Source: an uncultured Poribacteria bacterium
Lineage (GTDB): Bacteria; Poribacteria; WGA-4E; WGA-3G
DNA: 64,000 nt
Assembly (NCBI GenBank): GCA_951813565.1
Contig: OX638351.1
Span: 2,784,001 to 2,848,000 of the forward strand
Direction of reading: 5' to 3'
Shown: piece after piece, positions 28,268 through 53,892 of the stretch
How positions within the stretch are numbered: position 1 is the first letter of the stretch
Layout: each line of letters opens with the position of its first letter
Made by a program: the position numbers and the translations under genes
The notes under the pieces: model-generated
What the model was told of the DNA's origin: nothing
Databases searched by the model: none
The model's input: only the letters and a program-made list of their open reading frames with translations

Positions 28268-28768
28268 GAGTAGGTAACTCCTTAATTAAGGTTTATCAGA
28301 ATGTAAGGTACCCGAAAATCGGGCACAAATTAAAAACTTCATATATAGATGGGGTTCCCGTGTCGTTATTTGTTAGTTCCGACGGAAATACCGGAAACTT
28401 ACCATCATGTCCATATTTAGTCAAGTAATTTTCAGACTATTTCGTTTGCCTTCCTCCGTGAAGTTCAGAGGATAGACGATGCTTTGAGAATAGGACTTTC
28501 TGCGGAACTGTAACCTTATTAACACCATTGGATAGGTAATTTTCAGTTCCGAAAGCCAACGCCCAAACTCTATACCTTTAAGTTTAGCAAAATTTGCAAA
28601 ATCTGTAAAGGTAAAAATCGATTTTCGCCAACTATTATACAAAATTCTGCTTATTTTGTAAAGCGAAAATTAAAATTTTTAATAAATTTTCTATAGATTA
28701 TCATAAATTAATACATTTTTCAAGTAAAATAACACATATTCGTTAAATTTTCTGAAATTTGAAAATAT

Positions 28769-29746
28769 TTAACTTTCTTGATGTTCAAACAGTCCCATCT
28801 GTTCAATTGAAGTTCCGATAATATGATTCTGAAGCCGTTCAGGATGCATTAATATATCAATAACGTTATCAAGTTGATCTGGTAAGAAAGACAAAGCGCC
28901 GGTTCTAATAAGTTGACGTGTTCCCTCGCTATGTTGATTATGTGAATCCCACTGACATGCAAAAAGAGGACGGTCTTGTAGCTGAGCGTATCTTGCAGTG
29001 TGCATTGCCCCTCCCTCTTTAGAGGTTTCAACTACCACCGTAGCTTTAGAAAGTCCGCTGATAATTCGATTGCGTAAAACCAGATTGGCAGGCGTTGGCG
29101 AGGTTGGAAACGGGTGTTCTGAAAAAATACATCCGGTTTCATAAATTTTCATAGCAAGATCGCGGTTTTCAGGCGGGTAGATAGATGATAGATCCGTAGA
29201 TATAACCCCAATAGTTGTTCCGTTTACGCCTAACGCTCCGTAATGTGCATTCGTGTCTATACCGTTGGCAAGTCCACTTACTATGGTAAAACCAGCTTCA
29301 ACTAAGCGGATCGAGAGTTCAAGTGTTACATTAATACCTTCCGCCGTGGGACGTTTGCTCCCTACAATTGCAACGCACTGTTCGTCCACTTCAGATAATT
29401 TGCCGACTTTGCAAAGTACCGTTGGTGCGTCTGGCACTGAATTTAGAAGTGTTGGATATTCAACATCTTCCGGAAAAAGCACCTTTATACCTTGGTTACC
29501 TAATTCATCCAATTTTTGGCGTAATTCGGTAAACTTATTACGTACCGTAAGGATCCGTGATGCTAAGATCGGGTTGAAGTTTGGCAACTGTGCTATCTCA
29601 ACCAGTTCCGCATCAAAAATACGTTCTACACTACCGAAACGCGTTAACAAGCGTTTGAGCCGAACTGCTCCAATTCCTTCAATCGAAGCAAGTGCAAACA
29701 AATATTCCCGATGTCTCTTTTCATCTGTTTCGGTTGAATGCGACAT
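28769..29746 (-). CDS. dprA: DNA-processing protein DprA
   Basis: VAIVGSK, IVSGLANGIDT.AH, RNRIISGLS, VVE...GGAMHTA. Confidence 0.93.
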   Translation of the reverse strand: MSHSTETDEKRHREYLFALASIEGIGAVRLKRLLTRFGSVERIFDAELVEIAQLPNFNPILASRILTVRNKFTELRQKLDELGNQGIKVLFPEDVEYPTLLNSVPDAPTVLCKVGKLSEVDEQCVAIVGSKRPTAEGINVTLELSIRLVEAGFTIVSGLANGIDTNAHYGALGVNGTTIGVISTDLSSIYPPENRDLAMKIYETGCIFSEHPFPTSPTPANLVLRNRIISGLSKATVVVETSKEGGAMHTARYAQLQDRPLFACQWDSHNQHSEGTRQLIRTGALSFLPDQLDNVIDILMHPERLQNHIIGTSIEQMGLFEHQES

Positions 29747-30374
29747 ACCGTCAGCAAATTCTCCAATAATGTTAATTTTAAAGAAATGGTATTACAAAAT
29801 TGAAATTCCAATATCTGAGAATCTAAATCTCTTTCTACAGTTAACCTAAGTGGTTCACTCGCTAAACATTTATTACATAACCTAAGTTGCTACGGACAAG
29901 ATTTCAAGCTTGTAGACATTGCTTTTTACTGAAAAACAAGGATTTCCAGCTAATTCTTATGCTTTCTTTTCTAAATCGGGGTTAGAAACCCCTCCTACAA
30001 GAGCATTCGCGATATAGGTAGCAACTTGGGTTATATTAATGTAACACATATTGACAAATTTTACAAATGTAAAATGTTGTACATCAGAACCATTTAATTT
30101 TCAGTTTTGAATACAGAAGTGTCAAACAACACTTCAAAGGGTGTTAAAAAGAGGCGCAATGAATTGCGCGACTACAAACACACATACTTTTTAAGATGAT
30201 GCGACTACAAACGGATTGCTACTAATTTAATTTGAACTAAAATCGGCTCTACAAAGTCCTCCTACAAGAAAAGCGACCTGGTTAATGCCAAATATTTACA
30301 CACCAAGAAATCAGTTGACACTTTTGTACTATTTAAGGTATCCTATAAAGATAAGATTAAATCAGGAGACAAAG

Positions 30375-37933: not shown

Positions 37934-38060
37934 AGGTACCCACTACCTAAAGGTAGGGGCTTGTGCTTCCTTGCGACTGCGGTTTTCTCAGAGAGTTGAC
38001 CGTCTTATTGTCGCTCCACTTTAGGCAGCCAAGCCTGCCTGTTTGATATTGATAGCAGCA
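37929..38060 (-). ncRNA. Putative TnpB omega/reRNA scaffold at the element right end
   Basis: Position 3' of tnpB including the right-end hairpin; boundaries inferred from family knowledge. Confidence 0.5.
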
Positions 38061-39133
38061 TTGATGTCTCTGTCGTGGTGTGAACCACATTCGGGACATG
38101 TCCACTGTCTATCTGCGAGAGAGAGTTCTTTGTTATGGTATCCACAATCACTACAAGGTTTTGTTGTTGCTATCCATTGAGAGATTTGCACAAGTTTTTT
38201 GCCGTGCTTCGCACACTTCTGTTCCAATATCTGAAGAAACTGGTAGAAAGAATGGTCAGAAACTTTACGTCCCCATAATCGTTTCATACCGTCAAGGTTC
38301 AGCGTTTCCAAAATGAGTGTGTCAAACTCTACACAAAGTTTTGAGGCAAGTTTCCATTGCCAATCTTCTCTTTGTCGGGCAACTTTTCTGTGTTGCCTTG
38401 CTAAAGCACGGCACGCACGATAATAGTTGTTAGAACCTTTGACTTTACGACTGAGTGCTTTGTTGAGAGATCGCAACGTGTTGAGTGATTGTTTGAAAAA
38501 CTGCGGAGATTGTCCCTTGTTGCCTTCGTCGCTTGTGAGGAACGTTTTGTTTCCGTAATCAAATCCTGCGCTCTTACCCGTCTTGGGTTTGGGTTCGGAA
38601 TCCTCAACATTCTCGCACGAAAAGCATATCCAATAGTCACCGCACCTGTCACGTTTGATCGTGATCGTCTTGATGACACCTTTGATTTCACGGTGTTTGT
38701 GAAAGGAAAACCATGTATCTATACAGTTGATTTTGATACGGTTATCTTCAAGTTTGTAGCCCGCTTGTGTGAAGGTCATGGAGTTGTATTTGTGTCTCGG
38801 TTTGATTTTCGGTCTACCCACTTTACGCGTTGTTTTGCCCGCTTTTCGGTCTTCGATATTCTCAAAGAAAGCGTCTTGAGATTTACCATAACGTAGGACA
38901 ACGTCTTGAACAACTTGACTCGGCAAGTCCGCCCAGTGTGGTTTAGTTGTTTTTTTGAGTTTCGCAACATGTGCCTTCAGACGATACGCAGACAAATTTT
39001 TGCCGAACATGCGATAATACCTACGTGCCAAACGCATGATATGTAGATGGATTTCCCACATATCATCAAGCATATTGCCGAGTTTGATTGTGTTAGATTG
39101 GTGTTGAAGTTTGAACTTGTGAGATTTTCTCAT
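38021..39133 (-). CDS. tnpB: RNA-guided endonuclease TnpB
   Basis: RuvC-I GFDYG, RuvC-II LETL, zinc finger CSDCG...CPECG, RuvC-III RDINAAINI. Confidence 0.93.
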   Translation of the reverse strand: MRKSHKFKLQHQSNTIKLGNMLDDMWEIHLHIMRLARRYYRMFGKNLSAYRLKAHVAKLKKTTKPHWADLPSQVVQDVVLRYGKSQDAFFENIEDRKAGKTTRKVGRPKIKPRHKYNSMTFTQAGYKLEDNRIKINCIDTWFSFHKHREIKGVIKTITIKRDRCGDYWICFSCENVEDSEPKPKTGKSAGFDYGNKTFLTSDEGNKGQSPQFFKQSLNTLRSLNKALSRKVKGSNNYYRACRALARQHRKVARQREDWQWKLASKLCVEFDTLILETLNLDGMKRLWGRKVSDHSFYQFLQILEQKCAKHGKKLVQISQWIATTKPCSDCGYHNKELSLADRQWTCPECGSHHDRDINAAINIKQAGLAA

Positions 39134-39230: not shown

Positions 39231-40320
39231 CAGGACTTACGCAGTCTTGAAGATTATTGAAGGATTTGAGAGTTGATGTCGTAAATAATCGTCCAATAAG
39301 CTATCTTTAAGCTCATAAATTGTTCTACCAACTGCACGGGCAGTGCGTGTCAAACAGACCCATACTTGAAAACAACACGCAATATGATTTCTTTGCGCAC
39401 GCAACTTGCGACATTGACATTTACCAATACCAGTGACTTGTTTGATCTCACGATGAAATTGCTCAATCTTCCAACGCACTTTACATTCTTGGATTGTGGC
39501 ATCCGCATCTGATTGAGATAAATCGTTTGTAGCGATATATACCTTGTGTCCGTTAGAGGACGCTATCCGGAACAACTTCACTTGATGTCCATTTGGAAAC
39601 TTATTGATGTGCACGCGTTTTCCTTGTCGTATTTCTGTTTGGGTCCAACATAAATCTTGGACTTGTTGGTGTTGTTCAACACCATCCGTATCATTGACAA
39701 GACGATTACGCTTGAGAGGCACATAGTAAATCTTGGAAAGTTTTTCAATCGCTTTGATGACTTTCATTGACGCATACCAAGCATCCATGAGCACAGTCCG
39801 AAACGGGAGTTGTTTTTTCAAGTAGACATTGTGCAACATTTCCAGTAAATGGTCTATTTTGGTTTTACCATCATGATCTTTGTCAAAAATACGATAATCA
39901 ATGATCCAATATTCTTGCGTCTTTGGATTGACATAAAGACACGTGACAATACCGATGCCTACAACGACTTTTTTGTCGCTACCACTCCATTGAGAACGAA
40001 GGGCTTCAATCTCTTTGGCATGGAGTTTAGGAAGCACAAAATCATCAAAAACTATGTATCCTTCATCATCATACTCAATGTCATCCTTTACGGATTGCCA
40101 GAGTTCGCTTGAAGAAATGTTTTCATTTCTCAAGAAACGATTGAGTTGATCGTGGCTCCATTTTTCTGTCTGAGCAGCAAAGTAGGTTTGTGTCCAATTC
40201 GTGAAACTTGCTATCAAAAACTGACAATAATCGGAAAATAGGTTTTCCTTCTTTTGAGAGTGGGAAAATGTAATCATAATAGAATAGTATACACCATTTT
40301 ATAAAAATGCGTAAGTCCTG
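39231..40320 (-). mobile_element. IS701-like insertion sequence, 1090 bp
   Basis: 13-bp TIR CAGGACTTACGCA/TGCGTAAGTCCTG; 7-bp TSD AGTATAT at 39224-39230 and 40321-40327. Confidence 0.88.
39237..40277 (-). CDS. DDE transposase (IS701-like)
   Basis: IVFDD, IDYRIF..DGKTK, VLMDAWYA, RWKIEQFHREIKQ. Confidence 0.9.
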   Translation of the reverse strand: MITFSHSQKKENLFSDYCQFLIASFTNWTQTYFAAQTEKWSHDQLNRFLRNENISSSELWQSVKDDIEYDDEGYIVFDDFVLPKLHAKEIEALRSQWSGSDKKVVVGIGIVTCLYVNPKTQEYWIIDYRIFDKDHDGKTKIDHLLEMLHNVYLKKQLPFRTVLMDAWYASMKVIKAIEKLSKIYYVPLKRNRLVNDTDGVEQHQQVQDLCWTQTEIRQGKRVHINKFPNGHQVKLFRIASSNGHKVYIATNDLSQSDADATIQECKVRWKIEQFHREIKQVTGIGKCQCRKLRAQRNHIACCFQVWVCLTRTARAVGRTIYELKDSLLDDYLRHQLSNPSIIFKTA

Positions 40321-43523: not shown

Positions 43524-43669
43524 ATTTTTTATTGCAAGTTTCGGGAACTTGATTCTCCTTACTTTATGACTATGAAATTACAAACCACATCGCGTAACAT
43601 GCTTATTTCAGTAAAATTTAGATAATTCCACTATTGCATAAACTATATTTCTCAGAAAAAGTTACAAAA

Positions 43670-43724
43670 ATTACAACACTTCTATATTCAAGTCACTATT
43701 TCTTGAATATAGAAGTGTTGTAAT
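43670..43724. terminator. Perfect 23-bp inverted repeat downstream of the dehydrogenase gene
   Basis: ATTACAACACTTCTATATTCAAG-tcactattt-CTTGAATATAGAAGTGTTGTAAT. Confidence 0.55.
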
Positions 43725-43738
43725 ATATGGCTTCTATT

Positions 43739-44755
43739 TTAGGGATGTAACGCTGTTTTAACACCGCGTTGCGCGATAGCGTTATCAAAAGCTTCTAAAC
43801 CTTGTGAAATGGAAAACTGATCGGTTAGCAAAGGTTTGAAATTGATTGCTTCTTGTAGTAGGAGCTGGCGGGATTCTTGAAGGCTTGCTCGGGAAAATGC
43901 CCACGAAGCCATCAGTTTGTGTCCGGTATAGTGAAATTCTTCTAAGTTTATGCGAAGTTCCTCACCTTCCGGCGCAAGACCGAAAAAGTTGATACAACCG
44001 CCTTTGCGTATAACCTGAAAAGCGAGGTTAATCACTGACGTTTTATTTGTCGTAGCGGAGATGACGGTATCAACACCGCCGTGGGTGATTTCATGGAGAT
44101 GTGCAACATTGTCAGGAGAAATATCAAAAGCGGCATCGGCCCCGACAGTTTCTGCGACAGATCTGCGGTAGGGTAGAGGGTCCAGAACGTAGGTTGCTAA
44201 ACCTGCTCGTTTCGTCAATTGGGTGAACATCAACCCGATGGGACCAGCACCGAGGATGGCAACAGTGTTTTGGAAAATGGTTTCTTGCATCGCATTTAGG
44301 CAGCAGCCTAACGGTTCAAGGAAAAGTAGTTCTTCTGGTGGGATGGTGTCTGGCACTCGGATGAGTTTGCCCGTGTCTATGCCGTGTTTCGGCATCCGCA
44401 TGTATTCGGCGTAGCCGCCATCAATGTCGTGTCCGATACCTTCAATCGTATCGCAGTATTTGTCTTTGTCATTTCGGCAATGCACACAACTCCCGCACGA
44501 AAGCATCGGATTTACGGTGACCCGTTCGCCGACTTTTACTTCCGGATGCCGACTCTCAACGATTACACCTGCGAGTTCATGTCCCATCACAACAGGTGGT
44601 GAATAGTCTGATATATCGCCACGGAGCGCAGCAAGGTCAGATGCGCAGATACCGCACAACTCCATCTTGATAAGCACATCCCCGGCATTGAGTGTGGGAA
44701 TTGGTTTGTCTTGTATGCGTAACTGCTGAACTTTTTCAAAAACGATTGCTTTCAT
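43739..44755 (-). CDS. Zinc-dependent (MDR) alcohol/sugar dehydrogenase
   Basis: CGICASD, GHELAG, CGSCVHC...C, GAGPIG; start MKAIVF at ATG44755, 7 nt after the iscB stop. Confidence 0.92.
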   Translation of the reverse strand: MKAIVFEKVQQLRIQDKPIPTLNAGDVLIKMELCGICASDLAALRGDISDYSPPVVMGHELAGVIVESRHPEVKVGERVTVNPMLSCGSCVHCRNDKDKYCDTIEGIGHDIDGGYAEYMRMPKHGIDTGKLIRVPDTIPPEELLFLEPLGCCLNAMQETIFQNTVAILGAGPIGLMFTQLTKRAGLATYVLDPLPYRRSVAETVGADAAFDISPDNVAHLHEITHGGVDTVISATTNKTSVINLAFQVIRKGGCINFFGLAPEGEELRINLEEFHYTGHKLMASWAFSRASLQESRQLLLQEAINFKPLLTDQFSISQGLEAFDNAIAQRGVKTALHP

Positions 44756-44762
44756 ATACGTT

Positions 44763-46319
44763 CTACGCAACCAATGGGCAGTTTACGATGCTATAACTAT
44801 ATCCATCGCGCTTTTGAATTCTTCGGATTTCGGTAATATTTCCAGATTTTCTCGAATCTTTCTCTTCAGGTGCAAAGTATTCTACGCGAAGTTTACGAGG
44901 TTTGCCTACTGCGGTTTTATCAAAACAGTTGATTATCCCTTTCCATTTCCGATCTCGCTTTGTTATCTCAACGTAGTCAAACTTCGCAAAGCCATTTACA
45001 TGCGAAACCTTAGTTGATGGTTTGATGAAACCGGGTGCTTTCATGTCAAATATCTTGCCTACATTGTCGCGTCTACCATATCCTTTAGCTTCAATGATAG
45101 CAACTTGCAGCGACTTAGCTCGTTTCGGAACAATCGCAACAGACGCAGCATCATAATAATGCGTTTTCGGCAATCTGGCAAGATTCCGATGATGTGCTGT
45201 TTTTCCACCAGTGCCACTTATTATTGGGAGCCCTGTTGTTTTGAGTGTCTCAAACAGTTTCCACCGAATAGTGTTGATTGCTGCAGCATCAGAAAGACCC
45301 TTTTCAGATTTTCGGGCTGCTGCTTGGACCTTCTTTGCAAAATCAGTACCAAGCTTTTCTTCCAACTCGGCTCCGTGCAGTTTACCTTTCTTTTCGTTGC
45401 AGTCTTTACATGCCATCGTCAAGTTGCTCGGACGGTTATCTTCACGAACGGCTTTAGGTGCGATGTGTTCTACTTCTAAATGACGTTTGCCTTTTCCACA
45501 ATAAGCGCATTTTCTGCCAGTCAGTTCTAAAAGATATTCGCGTATCTCACGTCCCCATAAAGTTCCTTGTTGATATTCAATGCCATGTATACCAGGATTT
45601 TCCATCAACTGCATATCAAATTTCACCGTCTCAATTGCCAATTGTGTAATCGGGTAAATCTTACATAACCGTCGGGTCCAGGTCTCTAAATTGAAAACAC
45701 GGGACATCAAACTCGGTGCCACCCAACCATTATCGGCGACCCGTTGATGCACAACGCGAATGCGTCGCCAGCGTTTCTTTTGACGCTTGTTCGTTTTGGT
45801 GTCAGGTAAACGCTCCCAACGATACCGCTCGTCTAAAAACATCGCTTTTGACACGCGATTCAAGTCATTTTGAGATTTACTGGAATCCATTCCCTCTGGC
45901 ACTGAAGCACGTTCATATCTCCATCCGTTTTCTGTAAGAATTGGCACTTGACGTTTCCGATTTGCCCACCGAGCAGGACGATACCGTAGATTACGAGTTC
46001 TACGTCCTCTACGAAAGCCCGAACGTTTTTGAAGATTTCTTTTGATTTGCTGCCCACGGTGATGTAATTCCGCAGCATAGACTATATCCCCAGATTCAGA
46101 CACAATGGCGATTCCACTGATGCGTGATCCCGGGTCCCAACTCAACGTATACGGTTTTGTGACAATTTCCGATTCTGGAACTGCTTTCTTAAGAATAATC
46201 GTAAACGGGTATTTTCGCCATATTGCTGCTTCACCGCGTTTCAGTAGACGACGTGCTACAGCAGGATGACAAGGTTCTAAAGGGTTTTTGTCTGTATCAA
46301 TAACTGCTACTTTTGACAT
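44763..46319 (-). CDS. iscB: CRISPR-associated IscB (OMEGA RNA-guided RuvC+HNH nuclease) with REC-position insertion
   Basis: PLMP-like N-terminus (NPLEPCHPAVARRLLK...PFTI), RuvC-I WDPG (D62), bridge helix RRGRRTRNLRYR, RuvC-II IETVKFD (E230), CAYC...EH(285)I...NL..AC..CN HNH, RuvC-III THYYDA. Confidence 0.93.
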   Translation of the reverse strand: MSKVAVIDTDKNPLEPCHPAVARRLLKRGEAAIWRKYPFTIILKKAVPESEIVTKPYTLSWDPGSRISGIAIVSESGDIVYAAELHHRGQQIKRNLQKRSGFRRGRRTRNLRYRPARWANRKRQVPILTENGWRYERASVPEGMDSSKSQNDLNRVSKAMFLDERYRWERLPDTKTNKRQKKRWRRIRVVHQRVADNGWVAPSLMSRVFNLETWTRRLCKIYPITQLAIETVKFDMQLMENPGIHGIEYQQGTLWGREIREYLLELTGRKCAYCGKGKRHLEVEHIAPKAVREDNRPSNLTMACKDCNEKKGKLHGAELEEKLGTDFAKKVQAAARKSEKGLSDAAAINTIRWKLFETLKTTGLPIISGTGGKTAHHRNLARLPKTHYYDAASVAIVPKRAKSLQVAIIEAKGYGRRDNVGKIFDMKAPGFIKPSTKVSHVNGFAKFDYVEITKRDRKWKGIINCFDKTAVGKPRKLRVEYFAPEEKDSRKSGNITEIRRIQKRDGYSYSIVNCPLVA

Positions 46320-46329
46320 TTTTTATCCG

Positions 46330-46580
46330 TGGATGTTGAGATACCCGAAAGCACCTCAACATCCAAAGCTCGCCTTGCGGCGGTAATGTGAGCCTCGTCA
46401 ATGTTATTTCTGCTTTATAACAGGGTTGACAGCGTATTGTAAAGCTGTTTACATTGCCCCGACAGCGCTCCCGGCTGGCTCATGTACCTGGAGGTGTCTA
46501 TATCAGAAATAACGGATTTAATGTTTCCAACCCATAAAGGCTTGACTAGATACCACTTGGGCATGTTTTTTGTTGCAATT
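46330..46580 (-). ncRNA. omegaRNA/HEARO-like scaffold with a 5' tracrRNA-like anti-repeat
   Basis: Minus strand has anti-repeat TTGCAACAAAAAACATGCCCAAGTGGTATC, then HEARO-like motifs (CCGTTATTTCTG...GACACC...TAAACAG...CAGAAATAACATTGACGAGG...CATTACCGCCGCAAGGCG) and a terminal UUCG-capped hairpin. Confidence 0.82.
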
Positions 46581-46673
46581 TTTGCCGTCAACCTCCCAGC
46601 AAAAATGCAAGATTGGAGGTCGACTGCAAACTCTTAAGACTGACGCTTGACGCAGCTTGACTTTAAGTATAGG

Positions 46674-48445
46674 GTTGCAACTCAAACATGCCCAAGCGAT
46701 AACTGCTATCTTCAGCAAGTATCTGACCTTCCTTTTGGGCAAGTTGCAACTCAAACATGCCCAAGCGATAACCTTCAAACGTGTGCGAAAGGCGTTCAGC
46801 ATCTTTTTCGTTGCAACTCAAACATGCCCAAGCGATAACTCTGGTCTGCTGCTTCGTTTATAATGTCCTCAATAGCGTTGCAACTCAAACATGCCCAAGC
46901 GATAACTTATTTAAACGCATATCAAAAATGATAGCACTAAAAGTTGCAACTCAAACATGCCCAAGCGATAACTTGTTCAGCGGATATATCATCACTGGAT
47001 TTGACGCGTTGCAACTCAAACATGCCCAAGCGATAACACTATTCTATGAGACATTTGAGATAAAGCAAAAATTGTTGCAACTCAAACATGCCCAAGCGAT
47101 AACGTTTACCCCTCCGTTTTGCCTCACCAGTGACATCTACCGGTTGCAACTCAAACATGCCCAAGCGATAACTATGTGATGCCGCAATCTCCCAAGATGT
47201 TGGACTTAAGTTGCAACTCAAACATGCCCAAGCGATAACTTTCGATCCTGAAATACCATATGCTTGGGAGCGTGAGTTGCAACTCAAACATGCCCAAGCG
47301 ATAACGCGCGGACCGGCTTTGGTGCGTTCCGCTAATCCGTGATGTTGCAACTCAAACATGCCCAAGCGATAACTTCGGCACATACAACCCTGTAGCACCA
47401 CCTGTCTCGCGTTGCAACTCAAACATGCCCAAGCGATAACACAGAAGGCTTAGACGATTACATGAAACTCAAAAGTCGGTTGCAACTCAAACATGCCCAA
47501 GCGATAACCGAGAAGTAACGTGTGTTATCATTTTCATCTTTCCAGTTGCAACTCAAACATGCCCAAGCGATAACATGTAAAACACCCTTGACTGTCTCAG
47601 GCGTAACCAAGTTGCAACTCAAACATGCCCAAGCGATAACGAAGTACCAAGACCACGCTGCGCAAGATTGCCAGCAAAACGTTGCAACTCAAACATGCCC
47701 AAGCGATAACTTCGGCTGGGGTGATGAAGTATATCTTCAAGGAGTTAGTTGCAACTCAAACATGCCCAAGCGATAACATGGGCAATCGCAGTATCATCAA
47801 AACACTTGAGTTTGTTGCAACTCAAACATGCCCAAGCGATAACTCAGCTGTCCTTTTTCGTTTGCGATGTTGATGCCAAGTTGCAACTCAAACATGCCCA
47901 AGCGATAACGAAAATCGGGGATATAGTCGTAGCGCAAACAGAAGCGTTGCAACTCAAACATGCCCAAGCGATAACTGAGATTCTTTCTTGGGCAAATGAT
48001 GATAAAAATTCGGTTGCAACTCAAACATGCCCAAGCGATAACTCTACGGAGTCTGCACCTATAAATTGTGCGTAACGGTTGCAACTCAAACATGCCCAAG
48101 CGATAACAAAGATCGTCACCACAGGATTTAACAGCAAGGTCAAGGTTGCAACTCAAACATGCCCAAGCGATAACGTATTGGATTGCTCACGGGATTGTCC
48201 GATGCAACGCAGGTTGCAACTCAAACATGCCCAAGCGATAACCACCTCTGCTTTCACTGTAATTATTTTCTGTTTGGTGCGTTGCAACTCAAACATGCCC
48301 AAGCGATAACTCAAAACTTCGTTTAGCGACTTCTTTACTTCAACGCTATGTTGCAACTCAAACATGCCCAAGCGATAACCTATGAAAGCCATCGTTTTGA
48401 AAAAATCCATCAAGTTGCAACGCCAGCACGCTTAAGTGATATAAC
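46674..48445 (-). CRISPR. CRISPR array: 26 identical 30-bp repeats + 1 degenerate repeat, 26 spacers of 34-40 bp
   Basis: Repeat (+) GTTGCAACTCAAACATGCCCAAGCGATAAC from 46674 to 48379; degenerate copy GTTGCAACGCCAGCACGCTTAAGTGATATAAC at 48414-48445; minus orientation inferred from G-U pairing with the anti-repeat. Confidence 0.98.
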
Positions 48446-48449
48446 ATAC

Positions 48450-49478
48450 TTACTCAAACTCATAAGGCACTGTTTCGGACTGATGTGTCTTTGAGGATTT
48501 TTCTGCCAAATCCATGATGGCAATGACACGGCGAGCGGACTCAGGTGTCACGAGCAATGGGGTGCCATCGTTCAAATGCGCAACTATATTTTCATAGTAT
48601 CTGGGTCCGGGTCTTCCGTGATGACCTACTTTCTGTTCCTTCGGATGCCCTTCAACTTCGGATAAAACATGATATTGTCCGCCTTCAGAAACAATAGATC
48701 CGTGTGAACCGAGCATTTTCCATTTCGGTCCGCCGACCTTCGCGATGTTAGACATCTGGATGTTTGCTGACGCACCATCCGCAACAAATTCCCCTTCTGC
48801 AAATCGAATAATAGCTTGCACGTGGTCTTCGTTGGTAATGTCTTTCCAAACAAGGTTCGGCTGAAAGAAGCCGGTGACGTTAATCATGGGTGCTTCAAGA
48901 ATGTTAAGCAGCCAGTCAAGGAAGTGTGCGCCCCAGTCATAGAATTGTCCGCCAGAAATGGCTTTGACGCTGCGCCACCAATTCGGGTTCGGTCTGCCGT
49001 AGCCGCCACCCCACATCTCGGCACTATAGACTTTTCCGATGACACCAGACTGAACAAGTTCGCGGAGCGTCCAGAAGTCTGCGTCCCAACGGCGGTTGTG
49101 GTGAACTGATAGCATCACATCATTTTCTTTTGCAGCGGTAATCATTTCCGTTGCTTCTGCAATTGTGACGCACATCGGTTTTTCAACGACAACGTGTTTA
49201 CCTGCATTGTGGGCTGCCACAGTCGGATCGCAGTGTAGACTGTGCGGCAGGACGTTCGCGACGAGATCAACATCTTCGTCTGCTACGAGGTCTTCAACGG
49301 AGTTGTAAGTTCGGACGTCGGGAAAATCCTGTTTGGCTGCCTTTGTCCGCTCTGGATCAATGTCGCACACTGCAACGCATGTGATGCCTTCTGTGCCTTG
49401 CATCATATTTGCGTGTGCTTTACCCATATTAAATGCTGCCCCATAACCGAGAACAGCACCTTTAATAATATCTGCCAT
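48450..49478 (-). CDS. Gfo/Idh/MocA family oxidoreductase
   Basis: AVLGYG, GKHVVVEKPM, HHNRRWD, GG.FYDWGAHFLD. Confidence 0.92.
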   Translation of the reverse strand: MADIIKGAVLGYGAAFNMGKAHANMMQGTEGITCVAVCDIDPERTKAAKQDFPDVRTYNSVEDLVADEDVDLVANVLPHSLHCDPTVAAHNAGKHVVVEKPMCVTIAEATEMITAAKENDVMLSVHHNRRWDADFWTLRELVQSGVIGKVYSAEMWGGGYGRPNPNWWRSVKAISGGQFYDWGAHFLDWLLNILEAPMINVTGFFQPNLVWKDITNEDHVQAIIRFAEGEFVADGASANIQMSNIAKVGGPKWKMLGSHGSIVSEGGQYHVLSEVEGHPKEQKVGHHGRPGPRYYENIVAHLNDGTPLLVTPESARRVIAIMDLAEKSSKTHQSETVPYEFE

Positions 49479-50286
49479 TATATGTTTGGCTCCTTCTGTG
49501 CGTGGGGTGTTACCCCGATTTCAAATTTTATGAATATCTTATTATAGCATAGATGCGGGGGTGTGTCAAAAATTAAATTGAACAAGGCAGAGGCATTCAA
49601 TTTTCGTCTAATTATCCGTTTTAGTTGAAAAGTTGGGACCTAAAAATCGTTCCGAGATGCACGAATTGATTGTATTTTTCTTCTCATTTTATTGGAATCA
49701 TCTCCTTAAAAAGTTACCATACGGTAACTTTTTTCATACCGTGGTAACTTTTTGAAATTCTCTATAAACTCAGTATATGTAAGGGTTTATAGACATTTTA
49801 TTTAAATTTTATATTTTTCATCTGCGTTGATGAACACAGGTTTCCTTTTGCTGGAGATATTTTATTTTCCTAAGTTTTGCGTTGTCGTCTTGGCATTAGA
49901 GAGTTACTTTCGATTTTCGGTGTGTTTGGGGATCGGTTTTCTCTTTTCATACTGATATTATACCAAGTTCTATGGGGTGATCAGAAGTTTTCGTGGTGTT
50001 AAGAACAATAGATATCCAATAGATTCACAATAAGTTTGCAGGAAAAGTTGGGGTTGATACGTTCTTTTTGCATCTTGGATGAGTGTGTTTTTTGTTGTCA
50101 GCATGGCGGTTGACGCGATTTTTTGCAGTTTTTGTAAAGGAAGAAATTATTGGAGAATTGAATGGCTTTGTGGAAAAGGTCTTAAAATTGACAAACGCTT
50201 AGAGATAGTCTAAACTATTACCACTTTTTAACACGCTTTTACCATAAAGACATATCTTCGGATTAAGTAGTAGATAGGAGGCAACG

Positions 50287-52484: not shown

Positions 52485-53892
52485 CGCAATAAGTAGTTTT
52501 GGACTTTCAAAAAGCCCTTAAGCGTTATGGAAATTTATACTTAATAGGGTATGAGAATTCGGAAAAGCACTAAACGGCGAAGACTAATTTCTAACTCTAA
52601 TCTGCGAGAACTTCTGCCCCTCCACCTCACATCGGTATAAAAGTTGAGCGCGCTTGATAGATACTTTGCAACGGCAGACAATTCTTCTAATCGTTTTGCC
52701 GTTGTGATATGAGTGTGGTCCAGCTTGTCAAGACCTTATTCTCTAAGTTCTTCTGCCATCGTTGAGTGAGTCTTCATCTCATACTCTCATTGACAAACTT
52801 ATCAAAAATGCTCTCAATGTTCCTATAGTTGTATTTATAGCACGCCTCTGCGACATATAGGGGCGTGTATTCAGTCCAATAGTGGTGATGACTTCCATAC
52901 CAAGCACGTTTGAGAAGTGACCAGAAGCCTTCAATCGTATTGGTATGGACATCACCGTCAACAAATTGTTCTTGATGATCAATGATATGGTGCTTCATCT
53001 CTTTACCGAGTGTGAGATAAGCCTTATACTCATCAGTCATCAACTGCGATTTATCTACTTTAACAACTTCGCGAATAAAATTTAAGATAGTCCGTCCCGT
53101 CAAATCTTTTGCGAGTCTTGCCACAACTTTCCCACCGCGTTCAATCGCTCCGATGATAGCATCTTTATCAGTGCCACGCCCACGCTTAGCAGGATCCCTG
53201 TCCTCTTTTTTGTTCGCTTTGCGAGGTTTACCCCCGACATAAGTTTCGTCAGCCTCTATGATACCTTGTAAGAGGATATTATCTTTAGCCATTTCAGCAC
53301 GGATGCATGTTCCCATACGCCACGCAGTCTTTTGATTCAAGTCCAAATCTCTTGCCAACTGATGACTTGAAAGACTCTTTTTAGCATTCGTCATCAACGA
53401 GATAGCCAAAAACCACTTCTGAAGTGCTATCTTTGTCCCGTGAAACACCGTGCCACAAGTAACCTTGAAAGTAGCAGTGCAATCGTGGCATTGCCAGCGC
53501 CCGATGCGTCCCAATTCCGTTTCTGTTCGTCTTGCAACGTTTGGGCAATCACAATGTGGACACTTCGGTTTACCCTTCCACCGAATACTCTCTAAATGTT
53601 CAATACAACTCTCTTGATCAGGGAATCGTTCCATCACTTTCAACAAATCCATCAGAAAACTCCTTTTTAGGAGTTGCTTTTTCTGACAGGTTTCTGATAC
53701 AATAATTAGATAAGACAGAATGCCAGAAAAGCAACTCGCTTTTTTGTGTTCAATTAGGGGGTTAGCAGCCCTCTAATTTCTTATCTAAATTGTATCATAT
53801 TTTCACAATTAAAACAAGCGAAAAATGTAGTCTACACAAGGATTTAGAGCGATTTTTAAAATTTTGTTGAAAGTCCAAAACTACTTATTGCG
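52485..53892 (-). mobile_element. IS1595-family insertion sequence, 1408 bp
   Basis: Perfect 26-bp TIR CGCAATAAGTAGTTTTGGACTTTCAA; 8-bp TSD TTGAATAA at 52477-52484 and 53893-53900. Confidence 0.92.
52774..53652 (-). CDS. IS1595-family transposase
   Basis: N-terminal zinc ribbon CPHC...CHDC, EADETYVGG, TDEY, HTNTIEGFWSLLKR. Confidence 0.93.
   Translation of the reverse strand: MDLLKVMERFPDQESCIEHLESIRWKGKPKCPHCDCPNVARRTETELGRIGRWQCHDCTATFKVTCGTVFHGTKIALQKWFLAISLMTNAKKSLSSHQLARDLDLNQKTAWRMGTCIRAEMAKDNILLQGIIEADETYVGGKPRKANKKEDRDPAKRGRGTDKDAIIGAIERGGKVVARLAKDLTGRTILNFIREVVKVDKSQLMTDEYKAYLTLGKEMKHHIIDHQEQFVDGDVHTNTIEGFWSLLKRAWYGSHHHYWTEYTPLYVAEACYKYNYRNIESIFDKFVNESMR

Follow-up and report, generated by a model that had tools for sequence, protein, structure and literature searches.

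A Poribacteria IscB cassette with a long CRISPR array and a type I-B-like leader embedded in its omegaRNA

Within a stretch of 64,000 nucleotides (nt) from the genome of an uncultured Poribacteria bacterium (contig OX638351.1; this whole stretch is called the window in the following), we analyzed a cassette whose parts follow one another on the minus strand in the order CRISPR array, leader, anti-repeat, omegaRNA scaffold and iscB. Judged from its sequence, this non-autonomous IscB cassette has probably taken up the leader of its host's type I-B CRISPR system and thereby made an updatable guide of its omegaRNA. Because the array is read from the opposite end, the newest spacer would become the omegaRNA guide, and the protospacer adjacent motif (PAM) of type I-B would become an NGR target-adjacent motif (TAM). 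The host genome (G000) is a single 5.43-Mb contig, in which iscB is present as a single copy and the 30-nt array repeat is confined to one place. The cassette comprises the following features:

44763..46319, minus strand: iscB, an open reading frame (ORF) of 518 amino acids (aa) with a PLMP-type start (PLEP), the RuvC residues D62, E230, H387 and D390 and the HNH residue H285
45729..45956, minus strand: clade-specific insertion of about 72 residues at the REC position (residues ~122-197), predicted as beta-hairpins with low to medium confidence
46320..46548, minus strand: omegaRNA scaffold of HEARO type with a 3' hairpin, from the fold and from a match to Rfam RF02033 (E 1.1e-10) below the gathering score
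46549..46579, minus strand: anti-repeat, pairing with the 30-nt repeat by duplex prediction
46580..46673, no strand assigned: putatively captured type I-B leader without promoter, 94 nt, from the alignment to the host I-B leader
46674..48379, minus strand: array of 26 identical 30-nt repeats, separated by 25 spacers, the presumed growth end lying at 46674
46704..46742, minus strand: leader-proximal, presumably newest spacer and candidate in-cis guide, for which no target was found
46907..46942, minus strand: fourth spacer, with a 36/36 phage match
48380..48413, minus strand: oldest spacer, with a match at the right junction, where the downstream dehydrogenase gene starts
48414..48445, minus strand: diverged terminal (27th) repeat, resembling the repeat of the sister elements L150 and L151

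An initial annotation of this DNA had described a 27-repeat array, which proved to consist of 26 exact 30-nt copies and one diverged copy, as well as a 518-aa IscB, whose residues D62, E230, H285, H387 and D390 were all found at the positions given. Beyond that annotation, we recognised a leader of 94 nt that separates the last repeat from the anti-repeat, and the match of the oldest spacer to the right junction of the cassette. The layout of array, leader, anti-repeat and iscB is shared by 12 array loci in 11 Poribacteria genomes, the window included.

The linker between the last repeat and the anti-repeat aligns to the leader of the host type I-B array and is near-identical to it over a 46-nt palindrome (46583-46628, 45 nt from the last repeat) and over the bases at the leader-repeat junction, while about 42 nt, which carry the I-B promoter when read by eye, are absent. 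Searched as a pattern, the palindrome was found twice in the host genome, namely in the I-B leader and in this omegaRNA linker. A set of 176 genomes yielded 26 matches in 22 genomes (0 with a reversed control), 19 of them beside an I-B-type repeat, seven in iscB loci and none elsewhere; it counts against our reading that the two sequences thus linked had themselves served to build the pattern, so that hits in both classes are partly by design. A cas2 gene lies within the fetched flank of 15 of the 19 I-B-side matches. The palindrome stands 86-88 nt from the repeat in 16 of 18 I-B arrays, 77 nt in the other two and 45 nt in all seven iscB loci, distances that differ by one and four helical turns (offsets corrected by hand). 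Over its first 74 nt the leader is free of insertions and deletions in 10 of 10 aligned iscB loci despite sequence variation. Phased leader motifs are reported to guide Cas1-Cas2 in other subtypes (PMC13748974), and the palindrome may guide the host Cas1-Cas2 at this locus as well. In the literature beyond general reviews, subscription papers lying outside the search, no account was found of a class 1 leader inside an omegaRNA or of an IscB with type I-B or in-trans spacer acquisition, nor any paper on IscB in Poribacteria.

Two cas1 genes are present in the host genome, about 1.6 Mb and about 1.2 Mb from the iscB locus. The first belongs to a locus that combines types I-B and III-A and has a 30-nt repeat (L004, G000:C1:1196000-1215000), where the I-B and III-A effectors share one array and one adaptation module, and its product scores as a type I-B Cas1 (456.7 bits, profile cut-off 304.1); the second is paired with a reverse transcriptase at a locus with a 37-nt repeat (L005). 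The earlier statement that the window lacks cas1, cas2 and cas4 therefore held for cas1, the nearest copy being about 1.2 Mb away, whereas cas2 and cas4 were not searched for separately over the whole 64 kb. Very likely, Cas1b-Cas2-Cas4 of the host would act from 1.6 Mb away, recognising the leader DNA seen embedded here and adding spacers at the IscB-proximal repeat. The spacers measure 34-40 nt here and 34-41 nt in the host I-B array, and the repeat is 30 nt long in both. The distal repeat diverges from the array consensus in 9 of the 11 loci with a visible end (the reference being the proximal repeat, which is also the majority form). Genome G106 holds a 37-nt spacer in both its iscB array and its I-B array, with 36/37 identity, the same ends and the same orientation to the leader. 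A cas1 gene of type I-B occurs in 8 of the 11 carrier genomes, compared with 74 of 176 genomes overall (kin are not independent here), and all arrays of at least nine repeats are found in these eight. Arguing against such borrowed adaptation are the fact that this shared spacer is the single one among 140 IscB-array and 1742 I-B spacers sampled, the carriers G150, G160 and G173, which lack I-B cas1 (G150 lacks any cas1), and the resemblance of the palindrome to the 5' stem of HEARO RNA. The arrays of the latter three genomes are short, with 4-8 repeats and scattered mismatches.

Tested as a type I-B array, the locus has an I-B leader at its growing end but neither the host I-B repeat nor the leader promoter. 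It would be very unlikely that an orphan I-B/III-A array received an IscB in its leader by chance and that its CRISPR RNAs (crRNAs) serve Cascade or Csm: the leader and the repeat and spacer lengths are indeed I-B-like, but the repeat is unlike all host I-B repeats seen and is found nowhere else in the genome, the leader has lost its promoter, repeat and anti-repeat co-vary, and the layout is kept in 12 loci. Because of these 12 loci and of the compensatory changes between repeat and anti-repeat described below, the adjacency of iscB and array is not due to chance. The initial annotation had considered that the repeat might belong to a distant class 1 system with an adjacency that is not conserved; half of this is true, in that leader, repeat length and spacer lengths correspond to the host I-B system, while in the 12 loci the array goes with IscB. 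Solo or paired copies of the IscB-array repeat without a nearby leader or iscB were seen in further Poribacteria genomes (L194:1505-1534, L195:1505-1534, L338, L341 and L266, the latter at about position 1500) and might be remnants or solitary units. A truncated copy with a repeat end, the leader start and an anti-repeat, without palindrome or iscB, lies in L270 (G102:C1 ~581600-581720).

On the RNA side, the Rfam family HEARO (RF02033) matches 46383-46624 with 56 bits and an E-value of 1.1e-10, which falls short of the gathering score of 83, since the RNA has a replaced 5' part; over the window there is no Rfam hit at the gathering threshold. The duplex of anti-repeat and repeat is predicted at -38.3 kcal/mol, and with the HEARO match this bears out the anti-repeat and omegaRNA scaffold of the initial annotation. 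From the last repeat to the start codon the fold has a z-score of -6.8, with 0 of 100 shuffles equally stable, and in the predicted structure the last repeat, the leader and the anti-repeat make up one long stem from which the leader is looped out. Two-sided changes occur at 9 of 40 pairs of the duplex, a number as high in 1 of 500 shuffles; these counts are lowered by three misaligned rows, in which a hairpin is inserted, and the control is inflated by kinship. The duplex is rich in G-U pairs, which would work on the iscB strand only, and has an internal loop directly before the last 8 repeat bases. From the predicted fold it appears rather likely that the anti-repeat takes the last repeat as its pairing partner in cis and that the newest spacer serves as default guide, which is favoured because there is one scaffold per transcript; older spacers would need long-range pairing or processing free of RNase III. 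A candidate internal promoter spanning the last repeat (9/12 match) was dropped, since it is at chance level and not conserved.

Transcription of the array very likely runs from its far, old end toward iscB, opposite to a type I array. In 4 of the 12 loci a near-consensus promoter for the iscB strand immediately precedes the distal repeat (read by eye), and the cassette of the window lies within a host operon with the following features:

49541..49569, minus strand: sigma-70 promoter of the host operon, 12/12 by consensus match only
48450..49478, minus strand: host oxidoreductase gene, upstream of the cassette, with the left junction at 48451
43739..44755, minus strand: host zinc dehydrogenase gene, downstream of the cassette

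It is likely that this operon promoter drives the cassette here. RNase III was not found in any of five Poribacteria genomes (G000, G152, G102, G106 and G081) with two Pfam models, nor in G000 with a third model, the model controls being positive in 8-9 of 14; its absence may be a trait of the phylum. A Cas9-style dual-RNA reading is weakened because RNase III was not found, and the type II scheme of a separate trans-activating crRNA (tracrRNA) with RNase III maturation does not apply, as the anti-repeat is contiguous with the array. The dual-RNA claim of the initial annotation thus does not stand in the form given: repeat, leader, anti-repeat and scaffold run together on one strand and fold as a single guide, like the RNA of DelIscB, a known CRISPR-associated IscB with a repeat-linker-anti-repeat RNA (PMC12660989).

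The main alternative, though an unlikely one, is that adaptation is borrowed in the same way and that the transcript is processed to crRNAs and a tracr-like RNA, with every spacer guiding IscB, as that annotation had proposed. Cas6, which is present in the host genome, would be the likeliest enzyme, cutting 8 nt from the 3' end of each repeat and thereby freeing the lower anti-repeat for any crRNA tail. The internal loop just before these 8 bases fits such a cut, and transcription of the whole array from distal promoters, arrays of 27-28 repeats and a relative with a separately promoted anti-repeat and scaffold and the array downstream (L152, see below) speak in the same direction. However, recognition by Cas6 is unsupported, given that the likeness of the array repeat to the host I-B repeat is about equal in both orientations; each transcript has a single scaffold for 26 spacers, RNase III was not found with three models, and DelIscB works as a single RNA (PMC12660989). 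As for the preferred in-cis use of the newest spacer, several observations sit badly with it. If only the newest spacer were used, long arrays behind a distal promoter would be little expected; no distal promoter belonging to the cassette was found in the window, the upstream gene contains a terminator-like site at chance level, and the own repeat pairs best with the own anti-repeat in only 4 of 12 loci.

The suggestion of the initial annotation to compare the spacers with viromes was fruitful for spacer 4, which matches a Poribacteria-associated phage at 36/36, namely an 80-kb contig with terminase and major head genes (G148:C3), and also a related IMG/VR contig. The 3' flank of the target reads TGG in the IMG/VR contig and in run X7. 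Against an NGR motif, it reads TGC in three phage versions (the genome contig and runs X1 and X3); phage escape is not established from this difference, because between the two full versions 22 of 250 positions nearby are different (9%). The four I-B protospacers that were found have the 3' flanks TGA, TGA, TGG and AGG in this orientation (4/4 NGR), and the reverse of these flanks agrees with the 5' YCN reported as I-B PAM (PMC8406132). Thus, although the targets are few, backward reading of the spacers likely turns the 5' YCN PAM of type I-B into a 3' NGR TAM, which is the TAM that we predict for this IscB. The IscB-RNA complex would then cut phage DNA. No match was obtained for the array among INPHARED phages, for spacers 1 and 2 as exact patterns in IMG/VR, or, as protospacer, for the arrays of L143, L144 and L142 in 112 family genomes. 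A degenerate repeat pattern gave two hits in IMG/VR, single copies in unrelated sequence, which were taken as chance. Spacer 2 (46773-46809) shares 17/18 nt with a sequence that is identical at six genome places (E 0.41 each), which may be a multi-copy element or chance. The 80-kb contig (L217-L221; also L222/L253) has a duplicated end, is hit by IscB-array and I-B spacers of several Poribacteria and has a near-identical counterpart in IMG/VR.

The protein itself was assigned to IscB with the NCBIfam model guided_IscB (NF040563; 356.6 bits, cut-off 175), whereas the Cas9d model gave 20.9 bits at a cut-off of 375, which places it outside type II-D. Among 92 homologues, D62, E230, H285, H387 and D390 are invariant or at least 90% conserved. 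The linker at the REC position measures 77 aa here and 23-150 aa across the clade, compared with 5 aa in ordinary IscBs; in the structure model the insertion forms beta-hairpins (predicted local distance difference test score 45-88), and no helical REC bundle is seen between bridge helix and RuvC-II, at medium to low confidence. A fold search ranked IscB structures first, then Cas9d and then other Cas9. In a midpoint-rooted FastTree phylogeny of 122 rows, which included no Cas9-lineage sequences, the clade forms one group of 41 rows (SH 100) beside the ordinary HEARO IscBs. It is very doubtful that the locus represents a survivor of the lineage from which Cas9 arose. The insertion at the REC position and the predicted NGR TAM might be taken that way, as might the best sequence match in the PDB, TbaIscB (124.5 bits), which has been called the founding member of the Cas9 lineage (PMC13180657); but the scores of ordinary IscBs are much higher (up to about 318 bits), the insertion is predicted as beta-strands, IscB structures rank above all Cas9, the Cas9d score is low, and independent associations of IscB with CRISPR have been reported (PMC10734277). 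The label of an IscB-to-Cas9 intermediate is hence, on indirect grounds, not borne out by the tree position, the failed Cas9d model or the predicted hairpins, and the protein is best read as an ordinary-lineage IscB whose CRISPR link would be a parallel capture. What stands of the adaptive-immune reading in the initial annotation is a conserved CRISPR-associated IscB with phage-matching memory, and what is not supported in the form given is the dual-RNA mode and the place between IscB and Cas9. Among longer homologues (908-2590 aa) there is one fusion only, with weak evidence. Many-copy relatives of 340-375 aa, IsrB-like by size, match query residues 4-136 only and occur in G003 (up to 24 matches), G020, G032, G033, G050 and others (L008-L017).

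About 60 compact homologues share more than 50% identity, and across the clade the arrays reach 27-28 repeats. Of 20 regions around the best hits in the phylum, 11 have the full layout, L150, L151 and L153 have one or two repeats with the same unit, L152 and L154 have variants with 37-nt repeats, three lie outside the clade without arrays and one is cut off. There was no close homologue in 39 other genomes of the genus of the window, and 78 IscB loci outside the clade showed no upstream array of at least three repeats, many of them with less than 1 kb of upstream sequence. L152 (G081:C1 ~2895600-2898250) encodes an intact 459-aa IscB, has a consensus promoter directly before anti-repeat and scaffold, and carries downstream of iscB an 11-repeat array of 37-nt repeats that ends in a different 37-nt repeat. 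Its repeat and anti-repeat pair with -30.4 kcal/mol, compared with a best value of -25.1 in 300 shuffles, and it seems to be a natural two-RNA layout of tracr-like RNA and array. L154 (G113:C159 ~28600-29900) has two different 37-nt repeat sets upstream and, by eye, part of the outer array's leader between its repeat and its anti-repeat; here a leader seems to have been captured a second time, from a 37-nt-repeat system. Tentatively, and with slightly less than even confidence, we consider that this IscB clade of Poribacteria is on its way to a Cas9-like immune system independently of Cas9, parasitising class 1 adaptation and maturing its guides without RNase III, and that a series of states survives: the single repeat of L150/L151, the in-cis array of this locus, the second capture of L154 and the split form of L152.

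The insertion site adds a further element to the picture, since the oldest spacer matches it:

44724..44756, plus strand: target of the oldest spacer, 28/33 with one gap; right junction at 44756, the predicted TAM being replaced by element sequence

In other species the oldest spacer matches its site better (94% over 33 nt). The empty-allele survey used the best 30 of 38 matches, one being the window itself; among the matches listed, the flanking genes are joined by 70-517 nt without cassette in 29 of 29 relatives, and in 20 of these 29 empty alleles the site is followed by NGR, which is not so in the filled allele. A joint from 44756 to 48451 exists beside the filled allele in two of four runs (X4 and X7, one study) and was not seen in X1 and X3. 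The right junction lies about 2 nt from what we take to be the cut site of a Cas9-like nuclease. Piece lengths indicate that about 79 nt of host DNA were apparently replaced at insertion. The cassette has no tnpA, and 10 Y1 transposase matches lie elsewhere in the host genome. Cutting of empty sites has been described for OMEGA nucleases (PMC13565253, PMC10734277), and from this one locus it seems slightly favoured that the oldest spacer targets the empty site and that the cassette arrived, or is kept, by cutting the empty allele. This is tempered by the genome-wide score of the oldest spacer (E 0.005), which is near that of the next best spacer (0.007), by mismatches to the site of this host within the 3' 16 nt, by the oldest spacer not being covered in the two runs with the empty allele, by the lack of a convincing flank-matching spacer in the 11 other loci, and by start-codon selection, which could fix the junction position anyway.

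One might go further and regard the cassette as mainly a selfish homing or retention element, in which the guide against the empty site matters and the long array is a by-product of a leader filled by the host integrase. The end of the oldest-spacer match 1-2 nt from the right junction, the loss of the predicted TAM in the filled allele, the coexistence of both alleles, the known empty-site cutting and the single-repeat members would all suit this view, which we consider improbable: no flank-matching spacer is seen in the 11 other loci, the genome holds one copy only, the repeat/anti-repeat pairing and the distal promoters are conserved, and the apparent replacement of host DNA is unlike a clean TnpA insertion. 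Apart from the cassette, a 28-nt inverted repeat (93% complementary, 43665-43729) lies directly past the dehydrogenase gene, and the window ORFs 38021-39133, 39237-40277 and 52774-53652 presumably resemble TnpB, a DDE transposase and an IS1595-type transposase, respectively.

Compared with known systems, an updatable omegaRNA of this kind comes closest in layout to DelIscB, which likewise combines an IscB with an upstream non-coding RNA whose repeat, linker, anti-repeat and HEARO-type scaffold share one strand and whose guide is 5' of the repeat; by description only, DelIscB has 457 aa without a long insertion, a repeat of about 36 nt and the TAM NAC (PMC12660989), whereas here we find 518 aa, a 30-nt repeat, a 27-repeat array, a linker traced to an I-B leader and a predicted NGR TAM. 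With ordinary IscB/HEARO OMEGA systems (Ktedonobacter IscB, OgeuIscB) the locus shares domain order, catalytic residues, HEARO scaffold and probable empty-site cutting, but their guide comes from the upstream flank and not from a growing array. Type II CRISPR-Cas9, including II-D, has the repeat/anti-repeat duplex, 5' guide, 3' motif, RuvC and HNH in common with it; in contrast, there is here no REC lobe and no own cas1/cas2, the anti-repeat is contiguous with the array, RNase III was not found, and adaptation is apparently of class 1. TranC, the TnpB-CRISPR intermediates, are also transposon nucleases independently coupled to CRISPR, with RNA splitting as the key step, which L152 seemingly shows; they are built on TnpB and not IscB, and the available part of their description mentions no captured class 1 leader (PMC13565253). 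The host type I-B system shares leader palindrome, leader-repeat junction bases, repeat and spacer lengths and PAM, and differs in that the cassette has a private repeat, a deleted leader promoter, the opposite reading direction and another effector. Thus, a CRISPR-associated IscB with this RNA layout is already known, while the leader borrowed from type I-B, the reading of the array in reverse and the series of states across the clade look new, although the supplements of Altae-Tran et al. 2021 may list the clade.

For CRISPR-associated IscBs, which have no cas1 or cas2, the clade offers a concrete and testable answer as to where the spacers come from. The series from a flank-guided omegaRNA to crRNA plus tracr-like RNA would be the step that the origin of Cas9 required, replayed in parallel. 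The roughly 60 compact homologues have natural insertions at the REC position and a predicted short NGR TAM, a short TAM being linked to activity in human cells (PMC13180657), and a self-updating guide could possibly be used for recording. Altogether, the locus suggests how transposon-derived nucleases may gain adaptive immunity without adaptation genes of their own, via the type I machinery of the host.

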